64,000 nt of DNA from Candidatus Latescibacterota bacterium (GTDB lineage: Bacteria; Latescibacterota; UBA2968), in assembly GCA_965208125.1 (NCBI GenBank), contig OZ242320.1, positions 2,624,001-2,688,000 of the forward strand, written 5' to 3'. Made by a program: the position numbers and the translations under genes. Under the pieces are notes generated by a model. That model ran no database searches, was not told the origin of the DNA, and was given only the letters and a program-made list of their open reading frames with translations. Each line of letters begins with the position of its first letter. Positions within the stretch are counted from its first letter, which is position 1. This document shows, piece after piece, positions 42,409 through 62,929 of the stretch.

Positions 42409-43350
42409 ATGCGGCAGTATATTATGGGAGTATGCGTGATCGTATTTGGGGTCTTATCTTGCATGGTCGATACAACTGAGGCCGTTGAGGTCGTTCTCAA
42501 ATCGGGTCGCGTTGTGCGAGGCGAACTGATTCGGGAGACTGCGACTTCTATTACGCTTCAGCTATCTTCCAGCCGGATCGAAATTTCCAAGTTGAGTATC
42601 AAAACAATTGATGGACGTTCTCCTTTTGAACGGCGCAGATCCCGCGCGGCAGTATCTTCCGATAGTACAAGTAAGATGGAGGTGCAAATTTCCGCAGGCC
42701 ATTTTCTCATGGGAGATACCCGAGATAAAAATGCGCCTGTACACAAGGTGTATCTCGATTCATACTGGGTTGACACACGCGAAGTTACCAATGCTCAGTA
42801 CCGCGAATTTGTGACGAGTACAGGGCATGCGGCCCCACGGTATTGGGGCGAGGCCAAATACAATGACCCCAACCAACCCGTTGTGGGTGTTTCCTGGGAT
42901 GACGCCAATGCCTATTGTTCTTGGAAGGGTAAACGACTGCCGACTGAAGCAGAATGGGAGCGGGCAGCGCGGGGGGTACAAAGCCGTCTTTACCCCTGGG
43001 GCGACCGTTTTGACGTCACGCGAACAAATACCAGAGAAACCCGAAACCGGCGTCCGATGCCTGTGGGAACTTTCCCCGAAGGTGCTACCAGTGAGGGCTT
43101 GCTCGATATGTCGGGCAATGTGTGGGAGTGGTGTTGGGATTGGTATGATGAGGGATATTATCGCGTCTCTCCTCTCAATAATCCCACGGGTCCAGAAGCC
43201 GGGAAAAAGCGTGTCATAAGGGGTGGGGGCTGGAGTGCTCCTCATATCCACATGGCTCGGCGGCGAGGTGAAAAGCCCGATAAGACCTACCCTTCTCTGG
43301 GTTTTCGATGCGCCAGATCGGATACTCAGGCACGGGCGAAACAAGAATAA
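42409..43350 (+). CDS. Secreted FGE-sulfatase (SUMF1-fold) domain protein, probably non-catalytic
   Basis: Signal peptide; EVTNAQY, PVVGVSWDDA, RLPTEAEWERAARG, DMSGNVWEW, GFRC; no catalytic Cys pair after RGG. Confidence 0.88.
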   Translation: MRQYIMGVCVIVFGVLSCMVDTTEAVEVVLKSGRVVRGELIRETATSITLQLSSSRIEISKLSIKTIDGRSPFERRRSRAAVSSDSTSKMEVQISAGHFLMGDTRDKNAPVHKVYLDSYWVDTREVTNAQYREFVTSTGHAAPRYWGEAKYNDPNQPVVGVSWDDANAYCSWKGKRLPTEAEWERAARGVQSRLYPWGDRFDVTRTNTRETRNRRPMPVGTFPEGATSEGLLDMSGNVWEWCWDWYDEGYYRVSPLNNPTGPEAGKKRVIRGGGWSAPHIHMARRRGEKPDKTYPSLGFRCARSDTQARAKQE

Positions 43351-43357
43351 TAAGATG

Positions 43358-43389
43358 AAAAAAAAGCCGCTGATAAGCGGCTTTTTTTT
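43358..43389. terminator. Bidirectional intrinsic terminator between convergent genes
   Basis: aaaaaaaagccgct-gata-agcggctttttttt. Confidence 0.85.
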
Positions 43390-43408
43390 ATGAACTTTCA
43401 CAAAATCA

Positions 43409-43828
43409 TTACAGGTCGAGATCGTCCAAACCCTCCAGTTCATCCAATACCTCGTCTTCGCCTACTATGGTATCCGACTCTCGAATCACTACCAGAATGG
43501 ACGCCTGGGGTACAATGAGATATTTCTCCCCTTCAAAAGAGATCTCCATCGCGGCTTTTTGCAAAAATAAGGCAAAATCGCCTTCCTCAACTTGCAGGGG
43601 CAAATACCGCGGTTCTTTTGGAGAATTGCGCCAGGGTTCATCGTCTTCCGGCGTTTCTGGCAGCGGGAGCCCAGGCCCTGTGGCCATAATGCGACCGCTC
43701 TGTACTTCCTCTTTTTCGACCACAGTTTGAGGCAAATAAAGCCCTACTTTGGTTCGTTCTTCCAAATCTTCCTGCTTGACCAAAACGCGGTCGCCAATAA
43801 CGACGAGTTCTTTGTTTCCTATTTGCAT
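43409..43828 (-). CDS. Stand-alone GroES-family co-chaperonin (long form)
   Basis: IGDRVLVK...TKVGLYLP...GRIMATGPG...EGEKYLIVPQASIL; acidic tail; no groEL in the window. Confidence 0.8.
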   Translation of the reverse strand: MQIGNKELVVIGDRVLVKQEDLEERTKVGLYLPQTVVEKEEVQSGRIMATGPGLPLPETPEDDEPWRNSPKEPRYLPLQVEEGDFALFLQKAAMEISFEGEKYLIVPQASILVVIRESDTIVGEDEVLDELEGLDDLDL

Positions 43829-43943
43829 TGCATCTTCTCGCTCAATGAGTCCGTTATACATCTGAACAATTGTTTGTGAAACTTAAAAAATTGTACCGCA
43901 AGTGTCAACAGTTTAGGGGTAAAACTATTTGAATAATAAAATC

Positions 43944-43972
43944 TTGACAAATGGATGGATAAGGTATATTAT
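43944..43972 (+). promoter_or_regulatory. Sigma70 promoter for the leader-holB-metG transcript
   Basis: TTGACA-N17-TATTAT. Confidence 0.75.
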
Positions 43973-44015
43973 TTTTCACCGCGTTGTGATATACTTTTGA
44001 TTATGGAGCCGTTCC

Positions 44016-44111
44016 ATGTTGTTTTTTGTGCCAACAATGCAAATGCCGATGCCCGTCACTGTACGGGCTACACGTGTTGTACATTCCCACTGTGAGCAGG
44101 GGCATGGATAG
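44016..44111 (+). CDS. Putative leader peptide (31 aa, rich in Met/Pro/Val/His)
   Basis: GGAG SD at 44005-44008, ATG 44016, TAG 44109-44111; MLFFVPTMQMPMPVTVRATRVVHSHCEQGHG; lies between promoter and terminator-like hairpin. Confidence 0.6.
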   Translation: MLFFVPTMQMPMPVTVRATRVVHSHCEQGHG

Positions 44112-44140
44112 CGGATCATTTTAGTCGTTTGCAAAATAAA

Positions 44141-44175
44141 AAAAGCCGTTGGAATGTTCCGTTCCAGCGGCTTTT
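44141..44175 (+). terminator. Attenuator-like hairpin upstream of holB
   Basis: aaaagccgttggaa-tgttccg-ttccagcggctttt (14 bp with one G-U); inside the predicted 5' leader, 17 nt before the holB start; U-tract is short. Confidence 0.65.
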
Positions 44176-44192
44176 CATCATGAGAGGCGATA

Positions 44193-45236
44193 TTGAAACG
44201 GGTGATTGGACAGAAACGAGCAATTCAGTTTTTGACCGAATTGGTTGAGAGAGATCGAGTCCCGCACGCGCTGTTGTTTTTGGGGACTTCTGGCACAGGT
44301 GCAATGGCGGCGGCATTGGATTTTGTACAGGCATTGCATTGTCGGGCAGATGGTGCTGTGGCCTGTGGACATTGTGCCGCATGCCACAAGGTGACAAATC
44401 TCAATCATCCAGATAGTACGCTGCTCTTTCCCTTTTCTTCTCGCGTGAAAGAGGAAGATAGACAAGGCGTATTGCTTCAGGTGTGGCAATCGCCTTATCA
44501 CTATCCATTGCCCGACGACAATGCAGCGATTGCCATTGATCGGGTTCGGGAGATGCAGCGGCAGTTTACGCACAGTGCTTTTGCGGGGGGCTGGCGCACG
44601 ACTCTTATTTTACACGCGGATCAAATGCGCGCGGAGGCGGCCAACGCCATGTTGAAAACTTTGGAGGAACCGCCTGTTCGGTCGTTGATGATCTTGATTG
44701 CTCCCCATGGCGATGCGTTGTTGCCCACCATTGTGTCTCGGTGTCAGTTTGTGAAATTTTCCGCGCTTTCGCCGTATGATATCAGTACTGAATTGGCGGC
44801 AAAGGGCGTTGATAAAACAACGGCAGATTTTATTGGACGCACGTGTGGCGGCGACTTTCGCAGGGCATTGGATATGACCGATGGCCATATCGCAGACAAG
44901 CAAGATCGTTCATTTCGGTTTTTGGAAGCCTTGCTGTGGGAGCAGGAGGAGCGCACGTTTGAAGCACTGGCAAAACTCGACCGACAAGAGGCATTGGATA
45001 TTTTGGCAGGTGCAGAAATCTGGCTCAGGGACGCGCTGTTGTTGCAATGTGGTCGGGAAGATAATATAGCCAATGCCGATCATGTGGACAATGTCGGGCG
45101 ATTGGCTGAGGTTTTTGATCTGGACCAACTCGCCGCAATTGTAAAAAAGATTGAATCACTGCGGGAGATGAATCACCGCAATGTAAATATGAATCTGGGC
45201 TTGATTTCGCTCTGGCGACAGATCAGGTCCTTTTGA
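44193..45236 (+). CDS. holB: DNA polymerase III subunit delta'
   Basis: VIGQ, PHALLFLG, CGHCAAC..HPD, AANAMLKTLEEP, LLPTIVSRCQ; TTG start with GAGG SD. Confidence 0.88.
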   Translation: MKRVIGQKRAIQFLTELVERDRVPHALLFLGTSGTGAMAAALDFVQALHCRADGAVACGHCAACHKVTNLNHPDSTLLFPFSSRVKEEDRQGVLLQVWQSPYHYPLPDDNAAIAIDRVREMQRQFTHSAFAGGWRTTLILHADQMRAEAANAMLKTLEEPPVRSLMILIAPHGDALLPTIVSRCQFVKFSALSPYDISTELAAKGVDKTTADFIGRTCGGDFRRALDMTDGHIADKQDRSFRFLEALLWEQEERTFEALAKLDRQEALDILAGAEIWLRDALLLQCGREDNIANADHVDNVGRLAEVFDLDQLAAIVKKIESLREMNHRNVNMNLGLISLWRQIRSF

Positions 45237-45250
45237 GTGGGTGTAGAAAA

Positions 45251-47137
45251 ATGGGCACATTTTATATTACGACACCGATTTATTACGTCAATGATGAACC
45301 CCATATCGGGCATGCGTACACGACGATTATGGCCGATGTGCTGTCGCGTTTTCATCGCCTGGCCGGCGATGATGTGTTGTTTTTGACGGGTACGGATGAG
45401 CACGGGCAGAAAGTGGATGAGGCGGCGAAAGAACGCAATTTGTCGCCGCAGGCACACGCCGATGAGATGGTGGTGCGATTTCAGGCGTTGTGGGAGGTTT
45501 TAAATATTTCAAACGATGATTTTATTCGCACAACCGAAACGAGGCACAAGCGCGTTGTCTCCGAGATTTTGCAACGCATTTACGATGCAGGCGAGGTTTA
45601 TTCCGACAATTATGAGGGCTGGTATTGTATTCCAGATGAGCGGTTCTGGACGGAGAAGGATCTGGTGGATGGGAATTGTCCGGATTGCGGGCGGCCGACT
45701 GAGAAGATTTCGGAGAAGAATTATTTTTTTAAAATGAGCAAATACCAGGACTGGCTCATTGAGTATATTGAGACACATCCCGATTTTATTCGTCCAGAAA
45801 AGCGGCGCAACGAGATTCTCGGATTTTTGCGTCAGCCGCTGGGCGATTTGTGTATTTCTCGCCCTAAAGCGCGTTTGGAATGGGGGATTCCGCTTCCTTT
45901 TGATGAGGATTATGTCTGTTATGTGTGGTTCGATGCGCTGATCAATTATATCACGGCACCGGGTTATATCGCAGATGATGCGCGTTTTGAGCACTGGTGG
46001 CAGGCGTCTTGTCATTTGATTGGTAAGGATATTTTGACCACGCACTGCGTGTATTGGCCCACGATGCTCAAGGCGATAGGTGTGCCATTGCCCAAAACGA
46101 TTATGGGGCATGGTTTTTGGCTCGTGGATGAGACAAAGATGGGGAAGTCGCTGGGCAATGCGATCCGGCCTCTGGATCTGGCGGATAAATACGGGGTGGA
46201 TGCGTTCCGGTATTTTCTGGTGCGCGATATGACGCTGGGGCAGGATAGCAATTTTAGCGAGGAGGCTTTTGTTCAGCGCTATAATACCGAGTTGGCCAAT
46301 GAGTTGGGCAATTTGCTGAATCGTTCGGTGGTTATGGCTGCGCGATATTTGGATGGGGTTGTGCCTGCTGTGGATGTCAACCACGCGGCGCTCAACGCTT
46401 TGAAAGCGCAGACAGACGAGACGCTCAATGCGGTGGGCAAAGCTATTGATGCGATGAATCCCAATGCGGTGCTGGATGCGGTTTGGCGGTTGGTGCGAGA
46501 AGCCAATCGGTTTGTCGAGGTGCAGGCGCCGTGGCATTTGGTGAAGGATGCGAGCAAGAGGGCCGAGCTTGAGGTGACGATTTACGCGTTGCTGGAGACG
46601 ATGCGGCAATTGGCCGTGTTGCTGTTTCCGGTGATTCCCTCAAAGGCGTGTGAGATTTGGCGGCAACTCGGTGTAAAGGGTTCGCCGGAAGGTGTTCATT
46701 TGGATGGTTTAAAAACATGGGGGGGGCTGGATGCCAATTTGAAGGTTGCACCTGGCGATCCGGTGTTCCCGCGTATTGAGGAGGTCAATGTGGCAGAGGA
46801 AAAAACAGAAGAAGATTTGATTTCTTTTGCAGAATTTCAGAAGCTCAAGTTGCGCGTTGCTAAAATTGACGCAGCCGAGCGCGTGAAGGGGGCAGATCGC
46901 CTGTTGCAGTTGCAGATCAGTTTGGGCGATGAGCAACGCCAGATTGTCGCCGGGATTGCCGAGTTTTACGAACCAGAGGCACTCGTTGGACAGCAGATTG
47001 TGGTGGTTGCCAATCTGGAGCCAGCGACTATTCGCGGTGTCGAGTCCCAGGGTATGCTGCTGGCTGCTTCCGATGATAACGGCCTCGCACTCGTGACACC
47101 GGATAGTGAGATTAGTGATGGGGCAGAAGTTAATTGA
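45251..47137 (+). CDS. metG: Methionyl-tRNA synthetase with C-terminal tRNA-binding domain
   Basis: YITTPIYYVNDEPHIGHAY, GTDEHGQK, YVWFDALINY, KMGKS, ESQGMLLAA. Confidence 0.97.
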   Translation: MGTFYITTPIYYVNDEPHIGHAYTTIMADVLSRFHRLAGDDVLFLTGTDEHGQKVDEAAKERNLSPQAHADEMVVRFQALWEVLNISNDDFIRTTETRHKRVVSEILQRIYDAGEVYSDNYEGWYCIPDERFWTEKDLVDGNCPDCGRPTEKISEKNYFFKMSKYQDWLIEYIETHPDFIRPEKRRNEILGFLRQPLGDLCISRPKARLEWGIPLPFDEDYVCYVWFDALINYITAPGYIADDARFEHWWQASCHLIGKDILTTHCVYWPTMLKAIGVPLPKTIMGHGFWLVDETKMGKSLGNAIRPLDLADKYGVDAFRYFLVRDMTLGQDSNFSEEAFVQRYNTELANELGNLLNRSVVMAARYLDGVVPAVDVNHAALNALKAQTDETLNAVGKAIDAMNPNAVLDAVWRLVREANRFVEVQAPWHLVKDASKRAELEVTIYALLETMRQLAVLLFPVIPSKACEIWRQLGVKGSPEGVHLDGLKTWGGLDANLKVAPGDPVFPRIEEVNVAEEKTEEDLISFAEFQKLKLRVAKIDAAERVKGADRLLQLQISLGDEQRQIVAGIAEFYEPEALVGQQIVVVANLEPATIRGVESQGMLLAASDDNGLALVTPDSEISDGAEVN

Positions 47138-47681
47138 GAAGCAAATAGAGGTTAAAATTCGTCCATTGTGGCTCAGCGATGCAGCAGCAGTACAGCGATA
47201 TGCCTCTGATGAACGCGTTGCGCGTACTACTACCATACCCCAACCATATCCGGAGAATGGTGGAGAAACTTTCGTCAAGAAAGGCGTTAGAGCACACAAA
47301 AATCGAGAGGCGTTCTTTTTTGCTATTGTTGCAGATGGCGATATGGTTGGGGTGGTAGAACTCGGGGCGGTTGACTACGAAAAATGCAGTGCCCGATGTG
47401 ATTACGGAATCGCATCGTCGCATTGGGGCAAGGGAATTGCGACCAGGGCTGTTGCTCTCGCGCTACACTACGCGTTCTGTGAACTCGGCATGGAGATCGT
47501 CCATTCGGCTTGCCTGAAGTGCAATCCGGCGTCTGCTCGCGTTCTGGAAAAGAATGGATTTCAGGAGATGGATGGGTTTCTATACAACAGTTCCAAGTTC
47601 GAGAACGAACCCGCACGGCGGTTTCAACTGACCCGACAGACGTGGGTAGCGGTGCATCAAAAAATGGCGGTAAAACAATGA
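47118..47681 (+). CDS. GNAT acetyltransferase (RimJ/RimL type)
   Basis: IPQPYP, HWGKGIATRAV, NPASARVLEKNGF; start uncertain because it overlaps the metG end. Confidence 0.8.
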   Translation: MGQKLIEKQIEVKIRPLWLSDAAAVQRYASDERVARTTTIPQPYPENGGETFVKKGVRAHKNREAFFFAIVADGDMVGVVELGAVDYEKCSARCDYGIASSHWGKGIATRAVALALHYAFCELGMEIVHSACLKCNPASARVLEKNGFQEMDGFLYNSSKFENEPARRFQLTRQTWVAVHQKMAVKQ

Positions 47682-47884
47682 GACAAGTGATTATTTATCC
47701 GAGCGAAGATGGCTATTGGGTCGCTGAATGCCCCAGCTTGCCAGGTTGTATCAGTCAGGGAAAAACAAAACAGGAAGCTGTCGCCAATATCAAAGAGGCC
47801 ATTGAGGGATATGTTCTCTCTCTTGAAGAAGATGGATTGCCAGTTCCCGATTAACACTTTGAGGCATTGGTCATAGTCGTGTGA
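47678..47884 (+). pseudogene. hicB: HicB-family antitoxin with a premature TAA at 47852; no intact hicA
   Basis: MRQVIIYPSEDGYWVAECPSLPGCISQGKTKQEAVANIKEAI...LPVPD* then in-frame HFEALVIVV* (TGA 47882-47884). Confidence 0.75.
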
Positions 47885-47935
47885 GCGGATTATGGTGCTG
47901 TTTTATTAAAGTAAAGAGGAAGTGGAGAGATTACT

Positions 47936-48691
47936 ATGAATAACGGGCAGTGTCTGAATGAGCTACAAAAGGCCCTTGAGAATGATCTGCAACTCAGTGA
48001 AGTCTGGCAACGTACCAAAGAAGGCAAGTCTCCTACCAAAATAAAAGATGAATTGAAATTAGATAGAATTGGAGCTATTAGTAGGTTAATAAAGGCCATT
48101 GAGAAGGGTGACCTGCCCCAAAGTCCTTCGACAGCTAAACAGTGTAGAGGGGGATTACGAAGTTTCCTAAAACGACATCATGAGGACTTCTCAAAGGAGA
48201 CCATCCAGAAACTTGAGAAGCGGATTAAAGAATGCGATCGTCGGGCAAATAATCCCCAAGCCATAGAAGATGAAGACACCAAGGTGGAAAAAGAAACGAG
48301 CCAGGCGGTGGAATCCGGCGTCGCAGGGATCTACGTGTACACTTATCCTCACTACTACCGCCACTCGGTCGTTCAGGGAAAGGATGACGAGACTGATGAC
48401 CGGACATATCTGAAAATTGGGATGTCTGAAAAAGACGCTTTTAAGCGCGTTATGCAGCAGACGACAGGAATGCCTGAACGCCCAAGACTTCTACAAATCT
48501 GGGTGGTCGAAAACGATAGTGACCTGCGGGAAATTGAAAAGAAGATACATGACCATTTGCGTACGATTGGTCACAGTGGCCCCCACCAACGTAAAGAATG
48601 GTTCCTGACAAATGAACAGTCCGTAGCGTCAACCGCCAACCTTCTTGGCCTCAAGCTTCACTTTGAACTCAACCTGGAAACGGATGATTAG
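47936..48691 (+). CDS. GIY-YIG-superfamily nuclease (T5orf172/MUG113-like C-terminal domain)
   Basis: GIYVYTYP...YLKIGMS...R...EKKIHDHL...KEWF; base composition looks A-richer than flanking genes. Confidence 0.75.
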   Translation: MNNGQCLNELQKALENDLQLSEVWQRTKEGKSPTKIKDELKLDRIGAISRLIKAIEKGDLPQSPSTAKQCRGGLRSFLKRHHEDFSKETIQKLEKRIKECDRRANNPQAIEDEDTKVEKETSQAVESGVAGIYVYTYPHYYRHSVVQGKDDETDDRTYLKIGMSEKDAFKRVMQQTTGMPERPRLLQIWVVENDSDLREIEKKIHDHLRTIGHSGPHQRKEWFLTNEQSVASTANLLGLKLHFELNLETDD

Positions 48692-48771
48692 CAGGCTCTC
48701 GCATTGTGCCCTGAAGATTGTGATCAGGAGTCCTCAAATGGCTATCACCGACGGTGGGTCTCTTGTAAGAT

Positions 48772-49083
48772 ATGAATATTCTTGAAGGAATTTGTGAAAA
48801 GATACGAAGCGGTCAGTTTGAGTTCTCACAGCATGCTACTGATCAGAGTATTATTCGCCATATTAGCGTACAAGAACTGCGTGAAGCAATTGAAGGTAGT
48901 GAAGTGATTGAAGATTATCCCGACGACAAATACGGGCCGAGTTGCTTGATTCTCGGCTTCACAAAATCCAAGAGAACTTTGCATATTCAGTGTAGTTATC
49001 CATCAAGACCTTTGGTTAAAATCATTACACTTTATGAACCCGATCCTTCGCGATGGATTAATTTCAAAACAAGGAGAAAATAA
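48772..49083 (+). CDS. DUF4258-family protein (putative toxin)
   Basis: FEFSQHA...IEDYPDDKYGPSCLILG...LHIQCS...IITLYEPDP..W. Confidence 0.8.
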   Translation: MNILEGICEKIRSGQFEFSQHATDQSIIRHISVQELREAIEGSEVIEDYPDDKYGPSCLILGFTKSKRTLHIQCSYPSRPLVKIITLYEPDPSRWINFKTRRK

Positions 49084-49084
49084 A

Positions 49085-49321
49085 ATGTCTGATAATAAAG
49101 CGGTGCGTGAAACATTGGTTGAGATGAGCGTTACGTATAGTATTGAAGTCAATGGGCGGTTTGTTATCATTGAAGATGTTCCTGCTCGGGTCAATGTTGA
49201 GACGGGAGAAAGGTTCTTTTCTCCAGAGACTGTGGAATGTTTGCAACAGGCGGTTTGGGAACGATGTCAACCCGTTCGCACTATTGAAACACCTGTGTAT
49301 GATTATGCCGCATTGACATGA
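49085..49321 (+). CDS. YgiT-type partner protein (putative antitoxin, Zn-ligand-poor variant)
   Basis: VTYSIEVNGRFVIIEDVPARVNVETGERFFSPETVE; starts 1 nt after the DUF4258 stop. Confidence 0.75.
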   Translation: MSDNKAVRETLVEMSVTYSIEVNGRFVIIEDVPARVNVETGERFFSPETVECLQQAVWERCQPVRTIETPVYDYAALT

Positions 49322-49379
49322 CTATAGACTATTGATCTTTCCAAAAATTGCTAACATTTTTTGTTCTTAGTTTCATAGA

Positions 49380-49412
49380 CTGGATTGCGGCTAAAACCAT
49401 GCCGCAATGACA
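49380..49412 (-). repeat. TGTCATTGCGGC...GCCGCAATCCAG palindromic element, copy 2
   Basis: Reverse complement is tgtcattgcggcatggttttagccgcaatccag; arms identical to 19729-19762. Confidence 0.85.
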
Positions 49413-49487
49413 ATCAAAATTTTCTGAATTAAGCTAATAAAAAACTTTTTTACAGACCAATATTGTTTCAGTTTTCAGGATTTCAAC

Positions 49488-50258
49488 ATGCTTGTCGATT
49501 CACACGCACATTTGATGTTTCCACAGTTTCAGCAGGATCTGGACGATTTGCTCGCTCGGGCGCGTGCCGCGGGGGTGGGGCAGATTGTGAATGTGGGTAC
49601 AAATCTGGAGACGAGTCGGGCTGCTATTGATCTTGCCGAGGCACGGGCTGATGTGTTTGCTTCGGCGGGGTTTCATCCGTCGGATTCTGCAAAGGCGGAT
49701 GAAGCGGCTTTGAAAAAGTTGCCCGCGCTTTTGAAGCATCACAGGATTGTTGCGGTTGGCGAGACGGGGCTGGATTTTTATCGCGATTACGCGCCGCGCG
49801 AGGTTCAGGAACAGGCGTTTCGGGCACATATTCGCCTGGCGAGAGAGATGGGTTTGCCGCTGATTATTCACAGTCGGGGTGCTGAGACGCGCGTGTTAGA
49901 TGTATTGGAGGAAGAAGGCGGATCGGAAGTGGGCGGTGTGATGCACTGTTTTGGGGGGGATGTCGAAGGAGCCAAGCGTGCGGTTGATCTCAATTTTTAT
50001 CTGGGTTTTGGCGGTATTGTTACTTTCAAAAATTCGGGTGCGTTGAAGGTCGCATTGGATGTGCCCGCTGAGCGGTTGCTGTTGGAGACGGATTGTCCGT
50101 TTTTGGCACCGGCACCAAAGCGCGGCAAGCGCAATGAGCCGGCTTATGTGCGCTATGTTGCCGAGTTTCTGGCCGATGCTGGATGGGGGGATACTGGAGA
50201 TGTGTGTCGGCAGACGACGCAAAATGCTCAGGCTTTGTTTGGATTGGGATCAACGTGA
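49488..50258 (+). CDS. tatD: TatD-family nuclease
   Basis: DSHAHL, GFHP, VGETGLD, IIHSR, MHCF, LLETDCPFLAP...RNEP. Confidence 0.93.
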   Translation: MLVDSHAHLMFPQFQQDLDDLLARARAAGVGQIVNVGTNLETSRAAIDLAEARADVFASAGFHPSDSAKADEAALKKLPALLKHHRIVAVGETGLDFYRDYAPREVQEQAFRAHIRLAREMGLPLIIHSRGAETRVLDVLEEEGGSEVGGVMHCFGGDVEGAKRAVDLNFYLGFGGIVTFKNSGALKVALDVPAERLLLETDCPFLAPAPKRGKRNEPAYVRYVAEFLADAGWGDTGDVCRQTTQNAQALFGLGST

Positions 50259-51031
50259 AAACGAAGACGCGGCTGGGTCAGCATTTTCTCACAAATGGCG
50301 CAGCTATCGAGCGAATCGTAGAGGCTGCACAGATTGAAAGAGAGGATCTGGTCGTAGAAATTGGTCCTGGACGAGGTGCATTGACGGGCCTCTTGGTTGA
50401 GCGGGCAGATCAGGTGGTCGCTATTGAGATTGATGAGGCTTTGTGTGATCTGCTTTCTGATCGATTCGGTCCGCGGTTAAAAATTGTATCAGATGATGTG
50501 CGGCAGGTCAATTTGCCCGCGCTTGTTGAAACGTCAAAAAGAGAAAAGGCGGTTCTGGTGGGCAATTTGCCCTATCATATTACGGGTGCGCTCATCAGGC
50601 AAATTACGGATGCTCGAAGGGTTTGGAAACGCGCTGTGATTACAGTGCAGCGCGAGGTGGGGCAACGCATGATCGCTCCGCCGGGCAGTAAAATATATGG
50701 CGTGCTGTCGGTTGTTACACAGGTGCGATGTGTCGCAAAACGGTTGTTTGACCTGCCTCCCGCGCATTTTTATCCGCGACCCAAAGTGCACTCTTCTGTG
50801 TTGATGCTGGATTTTGAAGCGAATTCTGCTTATGATATTGTAGATGAAAGGCGTTTGTTTGGCGTGGTGCGCGCCGCATTTCAGCAGCGAAGAAAGATGG
50901 TGCGCAACGCACTATCTGGTGTGGTAGATGATGAGATTTTGATGGAGGCGAATATCGATGGCCGAGCGCGTCCCGAAACCATATCAATAGATGGGTTTGA
51001 ACGGATTTGCCGCGCATTGGCTATGCGATAG
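50255..51031 (+). CDS. rsmA: 16S rRNA dimethyladenosine transferase
   Basis: LGQHFL, VEIGPGRG, GNLPYHIT, FYPRPKVHS, FQQRRK; GTGA overlap with tatD. Confidence 0.93.
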   Translation: MKTKTRLGQHFLTNGAAIERIVEAAQIEREDLVVEIGPGRGALTGLLVERADQVVAIEIDEALCDLLSDRFGPRLKIVSDDVRQVNLPALVETSKREKAVLVGNLPYHITGALIRQITDARRVWKRAVITVQREVGQRMIAPPGSKIYGVLSVVTQVRCVAKRLFDLPPAHFYPRPKVHSSVLMLDFEANSAYDIVDERRLFGVVRAAFQQRRKMVRNALSGVVDDEILMEANIDGRARPETISIDGFERICRALAMR

Positions 51032-51052
51032 TTTTATAGAAAGGGATTTGTT

Positions 51053-51973
51053 ATGCCCATTCCAAAGTCAGATAAGATCTGGTTTAATGGGAATTTTGTG
51101 GGTTGGGACGATGCCAAAATTCACGTGCTGTCCCATGTGGTGCATTACGGTTCGAGTGTTTTTGAAGGGATACGGTGTTATCATACCGAAAGAGGACCGG
51201 CCTGTTTCAGGCTTCGAGATCATGTGAAGAGGCTCTACGATTCGGCCAAAATTTATCGTATGGAAATTCCCTATACGCAGGATGAAGTGGAAGCGGCCAT
51301 TTTGGAGACGATTCGCATTAATAAATTGCAAGCGTGCTATATTAGACCTGTGGTTTTTCGGGGTTTTGGCGAATTGGCTGTCAATCCAATGCCATGCCCA
51401 GTTGAGGTGGTGATCGCGGTGTGGGAATGGGGAAAGTACCTGGGGCCAGAAGCTCTGGAGAAAGGCGTGTCGGTTCGGTTTGCGTCGTGGAATCGTCTGG
51501 CGCCCAATACCATGCCTTCGCTTGCTAAGGTGGCGGCAAATTACATGAACGCGCAACTGATCAAGATGGAGGCGATGGCCGATGGCTATGCCGAGGGTAT
51601 TGCCCTGGATACACAGGGTTATGTGAGCGAAGGTAGCGGTGAGAATATTTTTATGGCGAAGAATGGACAGATTTACACGCCTTCTACCGAGTCGTCTATT
51701 TTGCCCGGTATTACGCGACATTCGGTTATTACACTGGCCCGAGATCTGGGACATACGGTGACGACGCGGCCGATTCCAAGAGAGTCCCTGTATATTGCCG
51801 ACGAGGTATTTTTTACGGGTAGTGCGGCAGAGATCACGCCGATTACGGCTATTGACCACATCAAAATTGGCTGTGGTTCTCGGGGCGGGATCACAAAGAA
51901 GTTGCAGGACGCCTTTTTTGCTGTTGTGGAAGGGCGTGCGGAAGATGAGCGCGGCTGGTTGACGTATGTTTGA
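51053..51973 (+). CDS. ilvE: Branched-chain amino acid aminotransferase
   Basis: [54 protein letters not shown]. Confidence 0.95.
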
Positions 51974-51999
51974 TGAAGGCCCTTTAACTGCTGATTGCT

Positions 52000-52809
52000 A
52001 TGATGATAAATAAAAAAATTGCTGTTATTGGCGCAGGCAATATGGGAGGCGCGCTCATGGCCGGTTGGATTCGGTCGGGAGAGATCGCGCCTGAAAATAT
52101 CACGGCGGTGGATTTGATTGCTGAAGTATTGGATCAGAGAAAGCGCGAGTTGGGTGTCCAGATTGCAGCGGATGCGCGCGAAGTGGTGGGCGATCAGGAT
52201 ATTGTGGTGCTGGGTGTGAAGCCCCAGTTCTGGAAGCAAACTGTTGAGGGATTTCGGGATTTGTTACGCAGTGATCAGGTGATTATTTCCTTCATGGCGG
52301 GTGTGCGAATTGCGGCATTGGAAGCGGAATTAGGTTCTCTGCCCGTTATTCGCGTGATGCCCAATGTGCTGGCGCAGGTCGGTGCGGCGGGTTCGGGGAT
52401 TTGTGCTGGAGCACATGTGGGTGAAGATCACATGAGTCTGGTAATGTCTCTGTTCAACGCGGTTGGTGCGGCGGTCGTTGTTTCAGAATCACAGATGGAC
52501 GCGGTGACTGGTCTTGCGGGCAGTGGGCCTGCATATGTGTACGCGGTAATTGACGCGCTGGCAGATGGTGGGGTGCGGTCTGGTTTGCCAAAAGATATGG
52601 CGTTGACGCTGGCGACTCAGACTGTGCTGGGGGCTGCGCGTATGGTTGCCGAGAGCGGCGAACATCCGTCGATTTTGAAAGATCAGGTGACCTCGGCGGG
52701 CGGAACTACTATTGCGGGTTTGCACGCGCTGGAACAGGGCGGTTTGCGCGCGGCTTTGATGGATGCTGTTTTGGCTGCGACAGAGCGGTCGGGTGCATTG
52801 GGGGAATGA
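52000..52809 (+). CDS. proC: Pyrroline-5-carboxylate reductase
   Basis: IGAGNMG, VKPQ, RVMPN, GSGPAY, VTSAGGTTI. Confidence 0.95.
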   Translation: MMINKKIAVIGAGNMGGALMAGWIRSGEIAPENITAVDLIAEVLDQRKRELGVQIAADAREVVGDQDIVVLGVKPQFWKQTVEGFRDLLRSDQVIISFMAGVRIAALEAELGSLPVIRVMPNVLAQVGAAGSGICAGAHVGEDHMSLVMSLFNAVGAAVVVSESQMDAVTGLAGSGPAYVYAVIDALADGGVRSGLPKDMALTLATQTVLGAARMVAESGEHPSILKDQVTSAGGTTIAGLHALEQGGLRAALMDAVLAATERSGALGE

Positions 52810-52810
52810 G

Positions 52811-53413
52811 ATGATTGCGGTTGTCGATTATGGGATGGGAAATTTGCGGAGTGTTCAAAAGGCGTTTGAACACGTTGGGGCAAAGGCTGTTATTGTCGAT
52901 AGACCAGAGGATATCGATGCCGCCGAGCGCGTTGTGCTTCCCGGCGTGGGGGCATTTGGCGATGCGATGAACAATCTGAAAACCGCGGGGTTGATTGCGC
53001 CCATTGTAAGAGCTATTTCAGAAGGCCGACCCTTTTTGGGTATTTGTTTGGGGTTGCAATTGATGTTTGCCGAGAGTGAAGAAATGGGGCAGCACAGGGG
53101 GTTAGACATTTTGCCGGGAAAGGTGAAGCGTTTTCCCGAAGGGCAGCGCGTTCCGCAAATTGGGTGGAATGAAGTGCGAATTCAGCGCGAGACAGCACTT
53201 CTGCATGGCGTGCCCAACAGGTCTTATTTTTATTTTGTCCATTCTTTTTTTGTAGCGCCTGAGCGCGATGAAGATGTGGTAGGGGTGACGGATTACGGGA
53301 TTGATTATGCGTCAATTGCCGGAAATGATCGGGCTTTTGGCGTGCAGTTTCACCCCGAGAAAAGTCAGGATGCTGGCTTAAAAATTTTGAAGAATTTTGC
53401 GGAGAAGGTGTAG
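52811..53413 (+). CDS. hisH: Imidazole glycerol phosphate synthase, glutaminase subunit
   Basis: DYGMGNLRSV, LPGVGAF, GICLGLQ, YFVHS, QFHPEKS. Confidence 0.95.
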   Translation: MIAVVDYGMGNLRSVQKAFEHVGAKAVIVDRPEDIDAAERVVLPGVGAFGDAMNNLKTAGLIAPIVRAISEGRPFLGICLGLQLMFAESEEMGQHRGLDILPGKVKRFPEGQRVPQIGWNEVRIQRETALLHGVPNRSYFYFVHSFFVAPERDEDVVGVTDYGIDYASIAGNDRAFGVQFHPEKSQDAGLKILKNFAEKV

Positions 53414-53414
53414 G

Positions 53415-54212
53415 ATGCTGGCCAGGCGAATTATTCCGTGTTTAGATGTGAAAAACGGTCGCAATGTGCGCGGGGTCAAGTTTTCAGCAGATAAAGATGC
53501 TGGCGATCCCATTGAACTCGCGAAACGCTATGATGCAGAAGGTGCCGATGAACTGGTGTTTTACGATATTACGGCATCGGCTGAGAAGCGCGATATTGTT
53601 GCCGAACTCGTGCAGCGTGTGTCCGAAGAGGTGTTTATTCCCTTTACGGTTGGCGGGGGCGTTCGCACGTATTATGACATTCGCACAATTATCGAAGGGG
53701 GCGCGGAAAAAGCGTCGATCAATTCGGCTGCCATACACACGCCTGAAATTATTACTCAGGGGTCTGAGAGTTTTGGATCGCAGGCAATTGTGGGGTCAAT
53801 TGATGCAATTCGACGTCCGAATCTCGATCAAACAGAAGATGTGTACTGGGAAGTGGTTATCAATGGCGGGCGCACATATACTGGAAGAGATGCCCTCGAA
53901 TGGGCTGAGGAATTGGTGGATCTCGGCGCGGGCGAACTGGTTTTGAACAGCATTGATGCAGACGGTACAAAAGATGGATACGATATTGAATTGAATCGCA
54001 TGGTTGCCGAGCGCGTGGATGTACCGATTGTAGCGTCTGGTGGTGCTGGTGGGCCAGAGGATATGTACGCGGTGTTGTCCGAAGGCAAGGCGAGCGCGGC
54101 ACTGGCTGCGTCGATTTTTCACTACAATCAATACAGTATTGCGGAAGTCAAAACGTATCTCGCAGAACGCGGGGTCCCGGTGCGTCCCAAGATCGAGATT
54201 GATTTGACATGA
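53415..54212 (+). CDS. hisF: Imidazole glycerol phosphate synthase, cyclase subunit
   Basis: [51 protein letters not shown]. Confidence 0.96.
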
Positions 54213-55366
54213 GTGGGACAAAAGAACACGAAATTGATCGCAGAGCTTTGTTTGCCGATGTGCGGCGGGTGGTGGTAAAATTGGGTACGCGGGTTGTGAC
54301 GGCACATGGCAACACATTGAATCTTGAGGTGATTGAACGCCTGGCCGCCGATGTGGCGTGTTTGAAAGATCGCGGGTTACAGGTGGCAATTGTGACATCT
54401 GGAGCCGTTGGTGCCGGCATGGGGCAATTGGGGTTGAGTAATCGGCCGAGGCGTTTGGCCGATTTGCAAGCTACGGCTGCGGTAGGGCAGGGTTTGGTGA
54501 TGGATGCTTACAAACGGGCATTTGAAGCACACGGTATTCTGGTGGGGCAGGTGCTGTTGACATCGGACGATCTGGACAATCGCACGCGGTATGTGAATGC
54601 GCGCAATACACTATATCAATTGTTTCGATATGGTGTTGTGCCTGTTGTCAATGAGAACGATAGCGTGGCGGTGGAAGAATTGCAATTGTCCGTGGGCGAA
54701 AATGACCGCCTATCCGCGATGGTGTCACATCTGGTGGATGCGGACATGCTGGTGTTGTTGACCGATGTCGATGGGTTGTTTTCAAGTGATCCCGCAAAAG
54801 ACCCAAACGCGCAATTAGTTCGGTTTGTGCGCGGGATGCCCAAAGAACTCTACGCAAATGTGGGGTCTTCGGGGAGTGCGTTGGGGCGCGGGGGAATGCG
54901 CACAAAACTCAGGGCAGCCGAAGCTGTGATACAAGGTGGGCAGATGGCAGTGATTGCAAATGGATGTACAAACGGTTTGCGCGAAATTTTGGATGGAGCA
55001 GATTGCGGCACGTTATTTGGGGCGGATAATCGCAGTTTGAACAGCAGGGATTTGTGGTTGGCGCATTCCCGAAAGCAAGGAGGTGTGGTTGTAGATGATG
55101 GTGCAGTGGTTGCTTTGAGCGATAGAGGCAAAAGTTTGTTGCCTTCGGGTATTATCCGCGTTATTGGCGATTTTGAAGTTGGTGAACTCATTGGCGTTGA
55201 ATCGGAACAACGCGTTGAGATCGCGCGCGGTTTAACGCGATTTGACGCCGATGATGTGCGACGTATTCGCGGAAAAAAAACGCCAGAAGTTGCAGAAATT
55301 CTCGGGATCAACAATGGCGCGGTAGTTATCCATCGGGATGATATGGTGGTGTTAAATCGGAAGTAG
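54209..55366 (+). CDS. proB: Glutamate 5-kinase with PUA domain
   Basis: VVKLGT, TSGAV, AAVGQ, NENDSV, LTDVDGL, GGMRTK, SLLPSG, VIHRDD. Confidence 0.94.
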   Translation: MSGTKEHEIDRRALFADVRRVVVKLGTRVVTAHGNTLNLEVIERLAADVACLKDRGLQVAIVTSGAVGAGMGQLGLSNRPRRLADLQATAAVGQGLVMDAYKRAFEAHGILVGQVLLTSDDLDNRTRYVNARNTLYQLFRYGVVPVVNENDSVAVEELQLSVGENDRLSAMVSHLVDADMLVLLTDVDGLFSSDPAKDPNAQLVRFVRGMPKELYANVGSSGSALGRGGMRTKLRAAEAVIQGGQMAVIANGCTNGLREILDGADCGTLFGADNRSLNSRDLWLAHSRKQGGVVVDDGAVVALSDRGKSLLPSGIIRVIGDFEVGELIGVESEQRVEIARGLTRFDADDVRRIRGKKTPEVAEILGINNGAVVIHRDDMVVLNRK

Positions 55367-55398
55367 AACAACCGACAACTGACTTTGGAGATTGTGTT

Positions 55399-55767
55399 AT
55401 GCGCTCATTTTATCGGGGACAAAGTACGGTGTTGCCGGAAAATAGTCCGAGGTTACCGGGAAGTGCAAGGCGACGTCTGAATAGATTTTTGATATTTGCA
55501 CCCGTGGTGCTTTCCCTTTATTTGTTTTTTGCAGGAGATAGTGGGATTTTCCAACTCGTAATGCGCGAGCAGCAAATTGCCGCATTAGAACGGGAAATCG
55601 AAACTATTCGCCAACAGAATGCGATGCTGGAACGCGAGACAAAACTGCTGGAAAACAATTTGGGTGAAATTGAACGCATTGCTCGCGAGCGCTATGGCAT
55701 GGTGTATCCCAATGAATCGATTTATATGGTCTATCCCAATCCACCAACAACATTGGAGTCGCCGTGA
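55399..55767 (+). CDS. FtsB/DivIC-family septum formation initiator
   Basis: Single TM, coiled coil, IERIARERYGMVYPNE. Confidence 0.8.
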   Translation: MRSFYRGQSTVLPENSPRLPGSARRRLNRFLIFAPVVLSLYLFFAGDSGIFQLVMREQQIAALEREIETIRQQNAMLERETKLLENNLGEIERIARERYGMVYPNESIYMVYPNPPTTLESP

Positions 55768-56558
55768 TTTGCCATACCGATGGGTTGGTGTTGCGCGGTT
55801 TTCGCATGAGTGAAAGCAGCAAGGTTGTGGTACTGTTTTCTCGCGATTACGGCAAATTGCGTCTGGTCGCCAAAGGGGCGCGACGGCCCAAAAGTAAATT
55901 TGGTGCGAGCCTTGAACCCATGACCTGGGGGCGTTATGTTTTTTATCGGCAGGATAATCGAGAGTTACAAATATTGAGCGAAGGCGATATTGCACACGCT
56001 TTTGAACCGGTAAAACAACACTACGGTCGAATGGCAGCCGGAAGCGCGATATGCGAATTTCTGGATCATATTACCGAAGATGAAGACCGCAATCCACTTT
56101 TGTTTAGTATTGCACTTGAAGCGATGCAATGGGTAGGGAGCATTGCTGAAATAGCGCTGGATGTACCGGTGTGGTATTTCCAGATTCGCGCTGCGGGCGC
56201 GGTGGGGTATCGCCCCCATGTGAGTGGGTGTATTCAATGTGGTGCGCGGCTCCAGGGGCACCGCCTGGGGTTTAGCCCCGGTCTGGGCGGTACTCTGTGT
56301 GACAAGCACGCAGGAGCGGGCATGCGTGTGCAGTTCGAGACGGTAAATTTTATGGCTCATCTACAGGTGGGACGTTCCGACCGCATTGATCTTTCACTCT
56401 TGCGGGGTGTAAATCGCGCAGAGGTGACGCGAATATTGCGCGCATTTTTTGATCAACACATCGAATCGCGCTATCGCCCAAAGGCACTGGATTTTTTTGA
56501 ACGCTTAAGGGCAGCAGAATCTGCGGCGCCTTATCGCTCAGGGATACAGGATTTGTGA
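55764..56558 (+). CDS. recO: DNA repair protein RecO
   Basis: GLVLR...ESSKVV...GKLRLVAKGARRPKSKF; CIQC...LC Zn region. Confidence 0.9.
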   Translation: MICHTDGLVLRGFRMSESSKVVVLFSRDYGKLRLVAKGARRPKSKFGASLEPMTWGRYVFYRQDNRELQILSEGDIAHAFEPVKQHYGRMAAGSAICEFLDHITEDEDRNPLLFSIALEAMQWVGSIAEIALDVPVWYFQIRAAGAVGYRPHVSGCIQCGARLQGHRLGFSPGLGGTLCDKHAGAGMRVQFETVNFMAHLQVGRSDRIDLSLLRGVNRAEVTRILRAFFDQHIESRYRPKALDFFERLRAAESAAPYRSGIQDL

Positions 56559-58623: not shown

Positions 58624-58636
58624 GAGAGAAGGAGTA

Positions 58637-62342: not shown

Positions 62343-62357
62343 TACGCGGTTCGAAAT

Positions 62358-62846: not shown

Positions 62847-62880
62847 TGTTAAGCAGTTTATCAAAGGAAGCTTCATTTTA

Positions 62881-62929
62881 CCACCATATCTTGTATATCT
62901 CATTTCAAATAAATCACAAGATATAGAGT
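62881..62929. promoter_or_regulatory. Tandem NrdR-box-like sites
   Basis: ccaCcAtATcTtGtat (62881-62896) and tcaCaAgATaTaGagt (62914-62929) fit acaCwAtATaTwGtgt at all six core positions; starts 33 bp apart. Confidence 0.6.

Follow-up and report, generated by a model that had tools for sequence, protein, structure and literature searches.

A conserved leader frame and terminator-like hairpin directly before holB and metG in sponge-associated Latescibacterota: a candidate attenuator

Introduction

Which genes, and which amino acids, might a short reading frame directly before holB serve in a bacterium of the phylum Latescibacterota? The question is raised by a 64,000-nucleotide stretch of DNA (contig OZ242320.1, positions 2,624,001 to 2,688,000), hereafter the window, to which all coordinates refer. 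A sequence-only reading of the window had proposed that one leader peptide senses Met, Pro, Val and His and governs the whole holB-to-valS run of genes that it mirrors. Attenuators of the synthetase genes pheST, trpS and leuS are known or predicted (PMC1262725). Our literature searches found no paper on metG leader-peptide attenuation, on Met-codon leaders, or on such elements in Latescibacterota. The comparisons presented here support a real, conserved leader-frame-plus-terminator unit directly before holB, and we suggest that the leader probably throttles transcription of holB and metG.

Results

A conserved unit directly before holB

The unit and the two genes behind it comprise the following features:

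43944-43949 and 43967-43972, + strand: -35 and -10 hexamers of a sigma-70-type promoter with a 17-nt spacer, placed by hexamer match and conservation
44005-44008, + strand: ribosome-binding site GGAG of the leader frame, 7 nt 5' of its ATG, columns invariant in the alignment
44016-44111, + strand: leader frame of 31 codons plus stop (44109-44111), rich in Met and Val
44037-44051, + strand: cluster of three in-frame Met codons (8, 10 and 12), directly 5' of the inner hairpin of the leader
44141-44175, + strand: intrinsic-terminator-like hairpin followed by four U, 17 nt 5' of the holB start
44182-45236, + strand: holB, DNA polymerase III delta' (ribosome-binding site 44182-44187, TTG start 44193; PF13177, E 2.8e-44)
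45233-47137, + strand: metG, methionyl-tRNA synthetase (PF09334, E 1.2e-110), its start overlapping the holB stop by 4 nt

The promoter lies where it had been placed from the sequence alone (TTGACA-N17-TATTAT, 43944-43972), and its columns are near-invariant in 20 sequences of the genus. It is an 11/12 match to a sigma-70-like promoter and the best of the 27 promoter-like sites found in 43000-62900, a total not above chance (21.7 +/- 4.9 in shuffles). Homologous promoters with partly conserved spacers occur in genera g9, g5, g7 and g4. Transcription would start near 43979. The sigma-70-like scan found no promoter-like site on the + strand of 43972-44751, that is, from the -10 hexamer to a point inside holB; transcription of holB in this genus thus seems to rely on read-through. 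The - strand of 43972-44200 likewise has none. Four promoter-like sites lie at 48825-49303, before tatD.

The unit adjoins holB in 21/21 genomes of the genus, and in the genomes searched it always stands directly before this gene, in one copy per genome. Identity per bin is 0.97-0.995 in the promoter, the start region, 44102-44121 and the hairpin, compared to 0.83-0.84 in holB; 44102-44121 is 99.5% identical among 20 sequences. Homologous leaders are present in the sister genus g9 (3/3; E 1e-7 to 1e-12) and in metagenome lineages, and the hairpin alone extends to two further genera. The host group consists of sponge-associated Latescibacterota.

Contigs of three RNA libraries from three studies bridge the hairpin into holB (43938-44343, 43995-44332 and 43987-44403); they derive from relatives 85-99% alike and are blind to transcript ends, and RNA libraries can hold DNA. 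The stretch 43862-43937 is without cover in three of four runs, the contigs starting at 43938, 43987 and 43995, from which we draw nothing because contigs cannot show starts or ends. In one run a contig reaches from the upstream gene across the promoter to 44086. Further RNA runs contain only small shares, and we base no statement about habitat on them.

Covariation supports a long leader hairpin

The RNAalifold consensus places these elements in the leader RNA:

44006-44027, + strand: P1 basal helix, 5' strand, covering the ribosome-binding site and start codon of the frame
44094-44117, + strand: P1, 3' strand, covering the last codons and stop of the frame
44036-44039/44082-44085 and 44042-44045/44075-44078, + strand: P2 middle helices
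44051-44056/44063-44068, + strand: P3 inner hairpin
44118-44140, + strand: unpaired linker ending in an A tract, with 44118-44133 almost invariant in the genus

Covariation supports the prediction that the leader RNA is one long hairpin, the base of which pairs the start region with the stop-codon region. The leader fold has a z score of -2.68 (2/200 shuffles equally good), and P1 is also present in the fold of the isolated segment. Helices 1-3 are 94-99% paired, with eight of their pairs changing on both sides, and helices 4-6 are 92-99% paired, with two-sided changes in helices 4 and 6. Overall, 97.2% of alignment cells are paired, compared to 31-47% when the partners are slid, and the 12 two-sided pair changes compare to 2.4 in shuffles (0/500 attain 12) and 2-4 when slid.

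Alignment with relatives, the check that the sequence-only reading had called for, showed both that the short frame is kept and that its stems covary. Two alternative pairings suggested in that reading fared differently: 44051-44056 with 44063-44068 is real and covarying, and 44049-44054 with 44100-44105 is peculiar to this genome, since position 44101 differs in 19/19 other aligned sequences of the genus and leaves a mismatch within the helix. A pairing of the leader 5' end with the holB ribosome-binding site, seen in a single-sequence fold, was discarded as not conserved in the alignment.

The leader frame looks translated

The GGAG site and 31-codon frame described earlier are present and the frame is conserved in relatives. 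It is open in 20/20 loci of the genus, one of which has an in-frame 6-nt deletion, and homologous frames of 31-37 codons are carried by g9, g5 and the metagenome lineages. Of all frames it alone is open in 11/11 lineages; in g9 the other two reading frames are interrupted by 1-4 stops each. Internal ATG triplets are in frame in excess (33/46, summed over 11 mutually related lineages), Met stands at codon 12 in 90% or more of 10 aligned peptides, and in another lineage the stop codon survives a third-position G-to-A change. The frame thus looks translated, judging from its ribosome-binding site, its being the sole frame open in every lineage, and the excess of in-frame ATG triplets. A second frame starting at 44003 was dropped; its ATG is absent from four divergent members of the genus.

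A ribosome-binding site and short frame close behind the promoter, as in attenuators, are found in g1, in the metagenome lineages and in g9, where a similar purine-rich site lies 10-11 nt 5' of the conserved ATG. No ribosome-binding site lies upstream of the g5 frame. In g7 the promoter and hairpin are present, and no 31-37-codon frame lies upstream of the hairpin. Variable columns in the genus alignment number 10, 18 and 18 by codon position, third positions not being favored, which fits a frame whose translation outweighs its peptide in importance.

These figures bear on the idea that the locus encodes, with a terminator of its own, a 29-37-residue protein in which Met, His and Val abound, for example a metal-binding peptide. 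A frame that is open in all lineages and has a ribosome-binding site would suit such a gene, as would a peptide core in which M1 and P13 are invariant and M12, V16, A18, V21 and V22 occur in at least 90% of sequences. Gene callers have also picked it up, and a library of 1.84 billion proteins includes six representatives that are 29-34 residues long. However, second codon positions have changed as often as third, the peptides are only 29-68% identical to one another, and RNA pairing accounts for much of the conservation. The same library contained no relative in another context or inside a longer protein; a seventh match is weak and is to repeats within a 537-residue protein. The peptide has no long hydrophobic stretch, the - strand of 43972-44200 offers no promoter-like site for an antisense RNA partner, and the locus does not qualify as a type I toxin or small membrane peptide. 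We regard a small-protein gene as very unlikely.

Methionine and valine codons are enriched

A recount confirmed four Met, three Pro, five Val and three His among the 31 codons, 15 in all. The claim that all four residues are enriched held for Met and Val and failed for Pro and His when each was compared with dinucleotide shuffles, on which alone these figures rest. Met is enriched in 6/8 lineages at p 0.003-0.08 (5/8 at <=0.05) and Val in 8/8 (p 0.005-0.08), p values that are not independent because the lineages are related; Pro is enriched in 0/8 and His in only 1/8. The combined share of the four residues is 0.39-0.55 in seven lineages, compared to 0.21-0.28 in shuffles, of which at most 16/1000 attain the observed share, and to 0.03-0.24 in the other two frames, the residue set having been picked after inspection of this same sequence.

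Met codons cluster in 9/11 lineages, the cluster being absent from g5 and nearly absent from one g9 lineage. Some of these AUG triplets double as pairing partners: in the long hairpin the His codon at 44103-44105 pairs with the start codon, and that at 44082-44084 with the Met-8 codon. The codon bias may therefore be partly structural, as AUG and CAU triplets partly serve base pairing.

The terminator-like hairpin is strongly constrained

The hairpin at 44141-44175 and its short U tract are present as the sequence-only reading described them. ViennaRNA gives 16 pairs, including four basal A-U and two G-U pairs, around a 3-nt loop, with an energy of -23.3 kcal/mol on the + strand compared to -16.8 on the - strand. 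The U tract has 4-5 U. One genome scan found the hairpin, and a simple terminator scan omitted it because the stem runs into A and U tracts. Seven lineages have 34-37 nt between stop codon and hairpin, and g5 has 43 nt; the window's own frame stops 30-34 nt short of the hairpin. In a pattern search the hairpin is single-copy in 26/53 genomes of the order, and a control pattern read backwards found none. Pattern matches outside the phylum are scattered terminator-like palindromes. A dispersed repeat was rejected, there being a single copy per genome; the additional sites that the model matched in one g9 genome are different terminators, which share a similar stem but lack the long hairpin.

All 15 pairs of the stem are intact in 24/24 sequences and 12 of them never vary. 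One interpretation of this constraint is that a protein or RNA recognizes the hairpin, which would act as regulated terminator, processing site or translational operator for holB, and that the frame is a later addition in one family. The stem is preserved nearly letter for letter in four genera, drawn from two families, although their holB proteins share only 46-54% identity; it varies only through one-sided, G-U-compatible changes, a stricter constraint than a plain terminator would require, and g7 retains the promoter and hairpin without the long leader. Against this, no candidate factor is known, similar stems serve elsewhere as ordinary terminators, and attenuator letters shared by several alternative pairings are also conserved over long distances (PMC1262725). 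Factor-dependent control is in our view unlikely. Recognition of the hairpin as a DNA operator was rejected because its G-U pairs weaken the - strand and DNA palindrome and the spacing of the arms varies between genera.

No ribosome-dependent antiterminator was found

Duplex searches in eight lineages and ribosome-masked folds revealed no antiterminator set by ribosome position. Between leader segments and the 5' arm of the terminator, 66-262 of 300 shuffles were as good, which is above chance in 0/8 lineages. Duplexes with the loop and 3' arm reach marginal values in three lineages (equalled in 15, 24 and 33 of 300 shuffles) but not in the remaining five. The antiterminator proposed earlier, 44105-44115 with 44158-44166, is a possible pairing (-14.8 kcal/mol, second-best partner of the loop and 3' arm) that is marginal at best compared to shuffles. 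The accompanying proposal, that a ribosome on the leader would mask one partner, gained nothing from ribosome-masked folds: these gave no stall-specific antiterminator, the Met codons did not stand out as a peak, and every full-length fold contained the terminator. Both the masked folds and the duplex searches are thermodynamic and of low power, and a weak or kinetic antiterminator could escape them. Three antiterminators picked by eye were at shuffle level and were rejected (start region with the 5' arm; 44081-44093 with the 5' arm; 3' arm of the inner hairpin with the base of the 5' arm). With an antiterminator missing, the element could instead use a mechanism so far undescribed.

The missing antiterminator also speaks for another reading, in which the locus would be a stand-alone small RNA gene, perhaps with a dual function, between rimI and holB, its frame incidental or minor and holB living on read-through of a leaky terminator. 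As in trans-acting small RNAs, there is a promoter of its own, near consensus, and a strong hairpin terminator, and the covarying long hairpin is followed by a conserved unpaired stretch beside that terminator. The genes rimI and holB are direct neighbors in g6 and have the unit between them in g9 and g7, and in g7 only a short RNA of ~60 nt precedes the hairpin. On the other hand, the element is never found away from holB or in a second copy, holB has no other visible promoter in the genus, and every lineage keeps the frame open, which carries a ribosome-binding site and clusters of in-frame ATG triplets. Rfam 15 covariance models (E up to 1; 40000-64000, both strands) gave no match to any family, by which 6S RNA, SRP RNA, T-box and known riboswitches are set aside. 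A small RNA gene is a real possibility, if a doubtful one. CsrA-type GGA sites (about four GGA per 200 nt) and a tRNA-Met mimic (its loop being without CAU) were dropped by eye.

The downstream run of genes

As the sequence-only reading stated, holB, metG, ilvE, proC, hisH, hisF, proB and valS all lie on the + strand. The genes holB and metG are adjacent in 10/10 loci examined, and the run holB-metG-tatD-ksgA-ilvE-proC-hisH-hisF-proB-ftsB-recO-...-valS is on one strand in all long-enough loci, from six genera. Genes matched in amino acid to the leader are metG, in second place, and valS and ilvE further along; the first gene, holB, is unrelated.

Could one leader sense Met, Pro, Val and His on behalf of this entire run, as originally proposed? 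The conserved order on one strand, the touching or overlapping of genes from tatD to cinA in the window, and a combined share of the four residues above that of shuffles and other frames are in keeping with this. Several observations oppose it. The residue set was chosen post hoc, and taken singly Pro and His show next to no enrichment, the His codons at 44082-44084 and 44103-44105 being pairing partners of AUG codons; the run holds only two his and two pro genes. Its conservation spans the whole order, leaderless genera included, and 2/2 leaderless genera examined for gene order keep it. Between metG and tatD the window has three inserted genes and gaps of 255 and 405 nt, and the four promoter-like sites stand before tatD. 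Finally, the antiterminator is wanting here too. The mirroring of four amino acids is only in part supported, and we consider control by all four extremely unlikely. A narrower version, in which a Met/Val leader would attenuate a conserved same-strand supra-operon of ~14-18 kb that has exactly the two matching synthetase genes, metG near the front and valS near the end, alongside ilvE, two pro, two his and replication, recombination and division genes, we judge distinctly unlikely.

Discussion

Tentatively, and at somewhat less than an even chance, we prefer to read the leader as an attenuator of the holB-metG operon that depends on ribosomes and senses through its Met, and perhaps its Val, codons. 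In the model that we infer, which takes in translation of the frame, termination at the hairpin, an effect of ribosome position, the residues sensed and the direction of the response, a strong promoter would produce a leader RNA of ~200 nt in which the 31-codon frame spans one long hairpin. Once its 3' strand is made, the base of this hairpin would lock the frame's own ribosome-binding site and start codon, such that the frame could be translated only by ribosomes loading during transcription of the leader. A conserved linker of ~25-30 nt would follow, and then the intrinsic terminator, 17 nt before the holB start. How the ribosome advances over the clustered Met, and perhaps Val, codons would determine what fraction of polymerases reads past the terminator into holB-metG and the genes downstream. 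The gene matched to the leader would be metG, in the manner of pheM-pheST.

Several results weigh against the attenuator. No antiterminator was detected and the masked folds are flat at the Met codons; the Met cluster is missing in g5, which also has no ribosome-binding site, and g7 has no long frame; the U tract is short, and the first gene, holB, is not an amino-acid gene. A crude whole-genome scan for other leader-peptide attenuators returned 182 sites and 49 clustered frames, none other of them credible, so that such control is not shown to be used by the organism. The sole other Met-rich short frame in the genome is antisense within a 798-residue gene.

Known systems resemble the proposed attenuator in part. 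In E. coli, pheM-pheST combines a short leader frame in which one amino acid abounds with an intrinsic terminator and the matching synthetase operon. The element before holB likewise has a short, biased frame and then a terminator ahead of an operon with a matching synthetase gene. It differs in that the residue sensed would be Met, perhaps with Val, that holB comes first and the synthetase second, and that its frame is longer (31-37 codons) and spans a hairpin masking its own start, with no antiterminator identified. The multivalent attenuators of E. coli ilvGMEDA and thr also use one leader peptide with regulatory codons for more than one amino acid over many codons, but their amino acids come from linked pathways, whereas Met and Val are unlinked here and the two synthetase genes lie ~13 kb apart in a mixed housekeeping cluster. 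In T-box leaders of Firmicutes synthetase genes, the leader terminator responds to tRNA charging; sensing here would use a translating ribosome rather than direct tRNA binding, and there is no Rfam match. Attenuation of the pyrBI type depends on tight ribosome-polymerase coupling. Only g7 resembles it. There a short frame, whose TTG start follows its ribosome-binding site by only 3 nt, extends through the terminator hairpin itself, and a ribosome trailing the polymerase closely would keep that hairpin from forming. By contrast, the window's frame stops short of the hairpin. For Streptomyces trpS and leuS, classical attenuators were predicted by comparative genomics (PMC1262725). These too are leader-peptide attenuators before synthetase genes outside the proteobacteria; they have clear antiterminator/terminator pairs with shared complementary motifs, unlike the present element.

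Should the proposal hold, methionine, and possibly valine too, would for the first time be the signal of a leader-peptide attenuator, and the uncultured phylum Latescibacterota would have its first described regulatory RNA element. The replication gene holB, along with synthetase genes, would then be tied to the speed of translation. Were the Met/Val supra-operon true, its leader would be the first attenuator to combine signals from two amino acids of unrelated biosynthesis while serving the synthetases of both. A further lead is the conserved cluster that extends from tsaB and rimI by way of holB as far as valS; it may show how symbionts of sponges and corals bundle housekeeping genes.

Results

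Layout of the holB leader

Re-reading of the window sequence confirmed the layout proposed in the sequence-only reading, in which a promoter, a 31-codon frame and a hairpin precede the holB start. The features read from the sequence are:

43944-49, + strand: -35 hexamer
43967-72, + strand: -10 hexamer, 17 nt from the -35 hexamer
44005-08, + strand: GGAG, leader ribosome-binding site
44016 (ATG) to the stop codon at 44109-11, + strand: leader frame, 31 codons
44141-44175, + strand: terminator-like hairpin, 16 pairs and a 3-nt loop, then four U
44182-87, + strand: holB ribosome-binding site, with the TTG start at 44193

The leader promoter is the top promoter-like site of 43000-62900 (11/12 matches). 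The 27 sites in this interval are not in excess of shuffles (21.7 +/- 4.9), and the promoter-site scan found no + strand site in 43972-44751. Part of the spacer (43950-43966) is conserved beyond both hexamers across the window's own genus (g1), its sister genus (g9) and another genus of the order (g4), and might be a regulator binding site. Two G-U pairs make the hairpin stronger on the + strand than on the - strand (-23.3 vs -16.8 kcal/mol), which marks it as an RNA feature belonging to the holB strand. The leader had no Rfam match at E up to 1. Read by eye, the leader frame remains open past its stop through the linker and hairpin (44112-44183), closing at a TGA that shares bases with the holB ribosome-binding site, a frame relation not kept in g9. 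Another open frame, 30 codons long (44003-44095, +), overlaps the leader frame in a different phase in most genus members; it lacks a ribosome-binding site, and its ATG is missing in four divergent members.

Distribution of the leader

A 399-nt intergenic query gave full-length matches beside holB in 21/21 genus genomes, the window's own included (77-94% identity), and in 0/20 other relatives searched. Identity within the genus is 97-99.5% in the promoter, the start region, 44102-44121 and the hairpin, above that of the first 70 nt of holB (83-84%). The exact hairpin pattern occurs as a single copy in 26 of 53 genomes of the order, comprising 19/20 g1 genomes plus the window's own (the sole miss being a one-letter variant), 3/3 in g9, and 1/1 and 2/2 in two other genera, g5 and g7. 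It was absent in 26 genomes from seven other genera, and the pattern read backwards gave zero matches. The hairpin lies directly before holB in every case examined, followed by a U tract in all four genera. A whole-leader covariance model matched g1 (19/19 and the window's own) and g9 (3/3) and none of 128 further genomes, a sample covering 14 families of the phylum; in g5 and g7 it picked up the hairpin alone. A metagenome contig scan returned 29 stretches, of which seven, with holB or clearly the same leader, add three lineages. The leader is a functional element and belongs to holB.

The frame and its codons

The leader frame held up among relatives. It is open in 20/20 genus loci (with an in-frame 6-nt deletion in one), has homologs of 31-37 codons in g9, g5 and metagenome lineages, and is open in all 11 lineages, as no other frame is; the two alternative frames hold 1-4 stops each in g9, and in g1 the alternatives are likewise almost open. 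In one g9-like lineage only the second of two in-frame ATGs survives, so the conserved start is the ATG paired in the basal helix of the RNA fold, 7 nt (g1) or 10-11 nt (g9) downstream of a purine-rich site. Variable columns number 10/18/18 over codon positions 1/2/3 and pairwise peptide identity is 29-68%, indicating little constraint on the peptide itself. Searched against 1.84 billion proteins, a profile of ten leader peptides found seven matches, namely six 29-34-residue proteins of the leader-peptide family, one with a long Val run, and a weak match to repeats within a long protein. That this frame, conserved as it is but loosely constrained in its product, is a small protein gene seems very unlikely.

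The sequence-only reading had proposed that one leader peptide senses Met, Pro, Val and His, mirroring the downstream genes. Against 1000 dinucleotide shuffles per lineage in eight lineages, all of them related, Met was enriched in 6/8 (p 0.003-0.08; not in g5 and one g9 lineage) and Val in 8/8 (p 0.005-0.08), whereas His was enriched in 1/8 and Pro in 0/8. The four residues make up 0.39-0.55 of the peptide in seven lineages vs 0.21-0.28 in shuffles, an excess carried by Met and Val. Of 46 internal ATG triplets counted across the 11 lineages, which are related, 33 are in frame. Of the three His codons in this leader, that at 44082-84 is the pairing partner of the Met-8 codon and that at 44103-05 the partner of the start codon; the position of the second, next to the stop, had been puzzling and is explained by this pairing in the long hairpin. 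Sensing of all four residues is highly improbable.

RNA structure and transcripts

RNAalifold on 20 genus sequences yields a long hairpin distinct from the terminator. In its basal helix, 44006-27 (ribosome-binding site, ATG and subsequent U-rich codons) pairs with 44094-44117 (final codons and stop codon). Nested inside are 44036-45/44075-85 and the inner hairpin 44051-56/44063-68, a pairing already seen in the sequence-only reading; the alternative given there, 44049-54/44100-05, lacks conservation, since 44101 differs in 19/19 other genus sequences. The terminator hairpin follows an unpaired linker, outside the long hairpin. Among 24 leaders (21 g1, 3 g9), in an alignment whose fitting to the model itself favours the structure, 97.2% of cells pair, vs 31-47% with slid partners, and 12 pairs change on both sides, vs 2.4 in shuffles (0/500 reach 12) and 2-4 when slid. 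Covariation thus extends to the long hairpin but not to the terminator stem, where 12/15 pairs are invariant and three change on one side only. Control by a factor that recognises the conserved hairpin is an unlikely reading of this conservation.

RNA libraries were available as contigs, in which ends and levels are invisible. Leader-to-holB contigs crossing the hairpin (43938-44343, 43995-44332 and 43987-44403; three libraries, three studies) come from relatives 85-99% alike and fit read-through, without proving a single transcript. A small RNA gene whose terminator leaks is a possible, if rather unlikely, interpretation of the leader.

When the transcript was cut before the 3' arm and a ribosome mask was shifted codon by codon, the 5' arm paired weakly (-1 to -8 kcal/mol), with no peak at Met codons in six lineages, and every full-length fold contained the terminator. 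The best leader/5'-arm duplex is at shuffle level in 8/8 lineages. The antiterminator segment proposed earlier (44105-15) is the second-best 3'-arm partner here. Pairing with the loop plus 3' arm stands out marginally in three lineages, where 15, 24 and 33 of 300 shuffles do as well, and is unremarkable in the other five. The masked folds and the duplex searches are both thermodynamic and would miss a weak antiterminator winning by earlier formation. The stop codon lies 34-37 nt from the hairpin in seven lineages, which puts the hairpin out of reach of a ribosome terminating there.

In both g7 genomes (loci L037 and L038) a short frame, 14 codons from TTG, runs through the terminator hairpin; its beginning lies either 5 nt upstream or 4 nt downstream of the point where the hairpin begins, and it stops 18 nt past the hairpin's end, inside the holB ribosome-binding-site region. 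An extra ATG in one genome gives 17 codons. Translation of this frame would melt the hairpin, hinting that g7 may use a simpler control of the hairpin through translation.

Gene neighborhood

Pfam confirmed the downstream run, including the metG, ilvE, proC, hisH, hisF, proB and valS genes named in the sequence-only reading: holB, metG, GNAT, T5orf172/MUG113 and DUF4258 genes, tatD, ksgA, ilvE, proC, hisH, hisF, proB, ftsB, recO, cNMP-binding and AI-2E transporter genes, valS, a GFO/IDH/MocA oxidoreductase gene and cinA. The order holB-metG-tatD-ksgA is found in 10/10 loci of six genera, followed by ilvE in 8/8 loci of sufficient length, proC-hisH-hisF-proB-ftsB-recO in 7/7 and valS in 5/5 loci reaching so far. 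The single-strand run from holB to valS (44193-62846) is common to six genera of two families (L159-L168, the loci compared for gene order), with the cNMP-binding and AI-2E transporter genes between recO and valS. Two genera, g6 and g2, keep the run though the leader is absent, and every gap in g6 is < about 160 nt. Judged from gene order, this run may form one very long operon of housekeeping genes.

The metG-tatD interval here (47106-49488) holds the GNAT, T5orf172/MUG113 and DUF4258 genes with gaps of 255, 81 and 405 nt, and the metG and tatD matches are only 8-12 nt apart in g9, g7, g6 and g2; the three genes resemble a mobile insertion that entered the cluster. Insertions between ksgA and ilvE occur in other genomes. 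The longest oxidoreductase frame overlaps the end of valS by ~120 nt (61236-61357), and its true start is probably further downstream.

The gene preceding the leader is rimI in g9 and g7, with tsaB before it in g7, and in g6 holB directly follows the gene at the rimI position. The window's genus has a divergent GroES-like gene instead (43409-43861, - strand). Its 150-residue product is ~55 residues longer than GroES, and its Cpn10/GroES model matches are partial and under NCBIfam cut-offs. A strong two-way terminator-like hairpin (43358-43389; 14 pairs, A and T tracts both sides) separates it from a convergent FGE-sulfatase-like gene (42409-43350).

Discussion

For gamma-proteobacteria, classical attenuators at pheST are on record, for Streptomyces those of trpS and leuS are predictions, and attenuator letters shared by several pairings remain conserved over long distances; the same source cautions that some leader-plus-terminator pairs, once mutated, failed to act as attenuators (PMC1262725). 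Our literature search found nothing on metG attenuation, Met-codon leaders or such elements in Latescibacterota. A crude whole-genome scan for hairpin-plus-U sites in 5'-untranslated-region-like places gave 182 sites, 49 short frames with a residue cluster, and no credible leader-peptide attenuator besides the holB leader; further examples are therefore not evident in this organism.

We tentatively favor a ribosome-dependent attenuator as the best-fitting reading, at somewhat under even chances, because a translatable frame is kept with little constraint on its peptide, Met clusters are in frame, the start masks itself and a terminator stands just before a metG-containing operon. The three rivals, a small RNA, a hairpin-recognising factor and a small protein, stay alive because the antiterminator is missing, some lineages lack Met clusters and g7 has the promoter and hairpin only. 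The boldest version left, in which the residues Met and Val correspond to the conserved run's metG and valS, is distinctly doubtful. In the window's genus, the leader is the only visible route for transcribing holB-metG.
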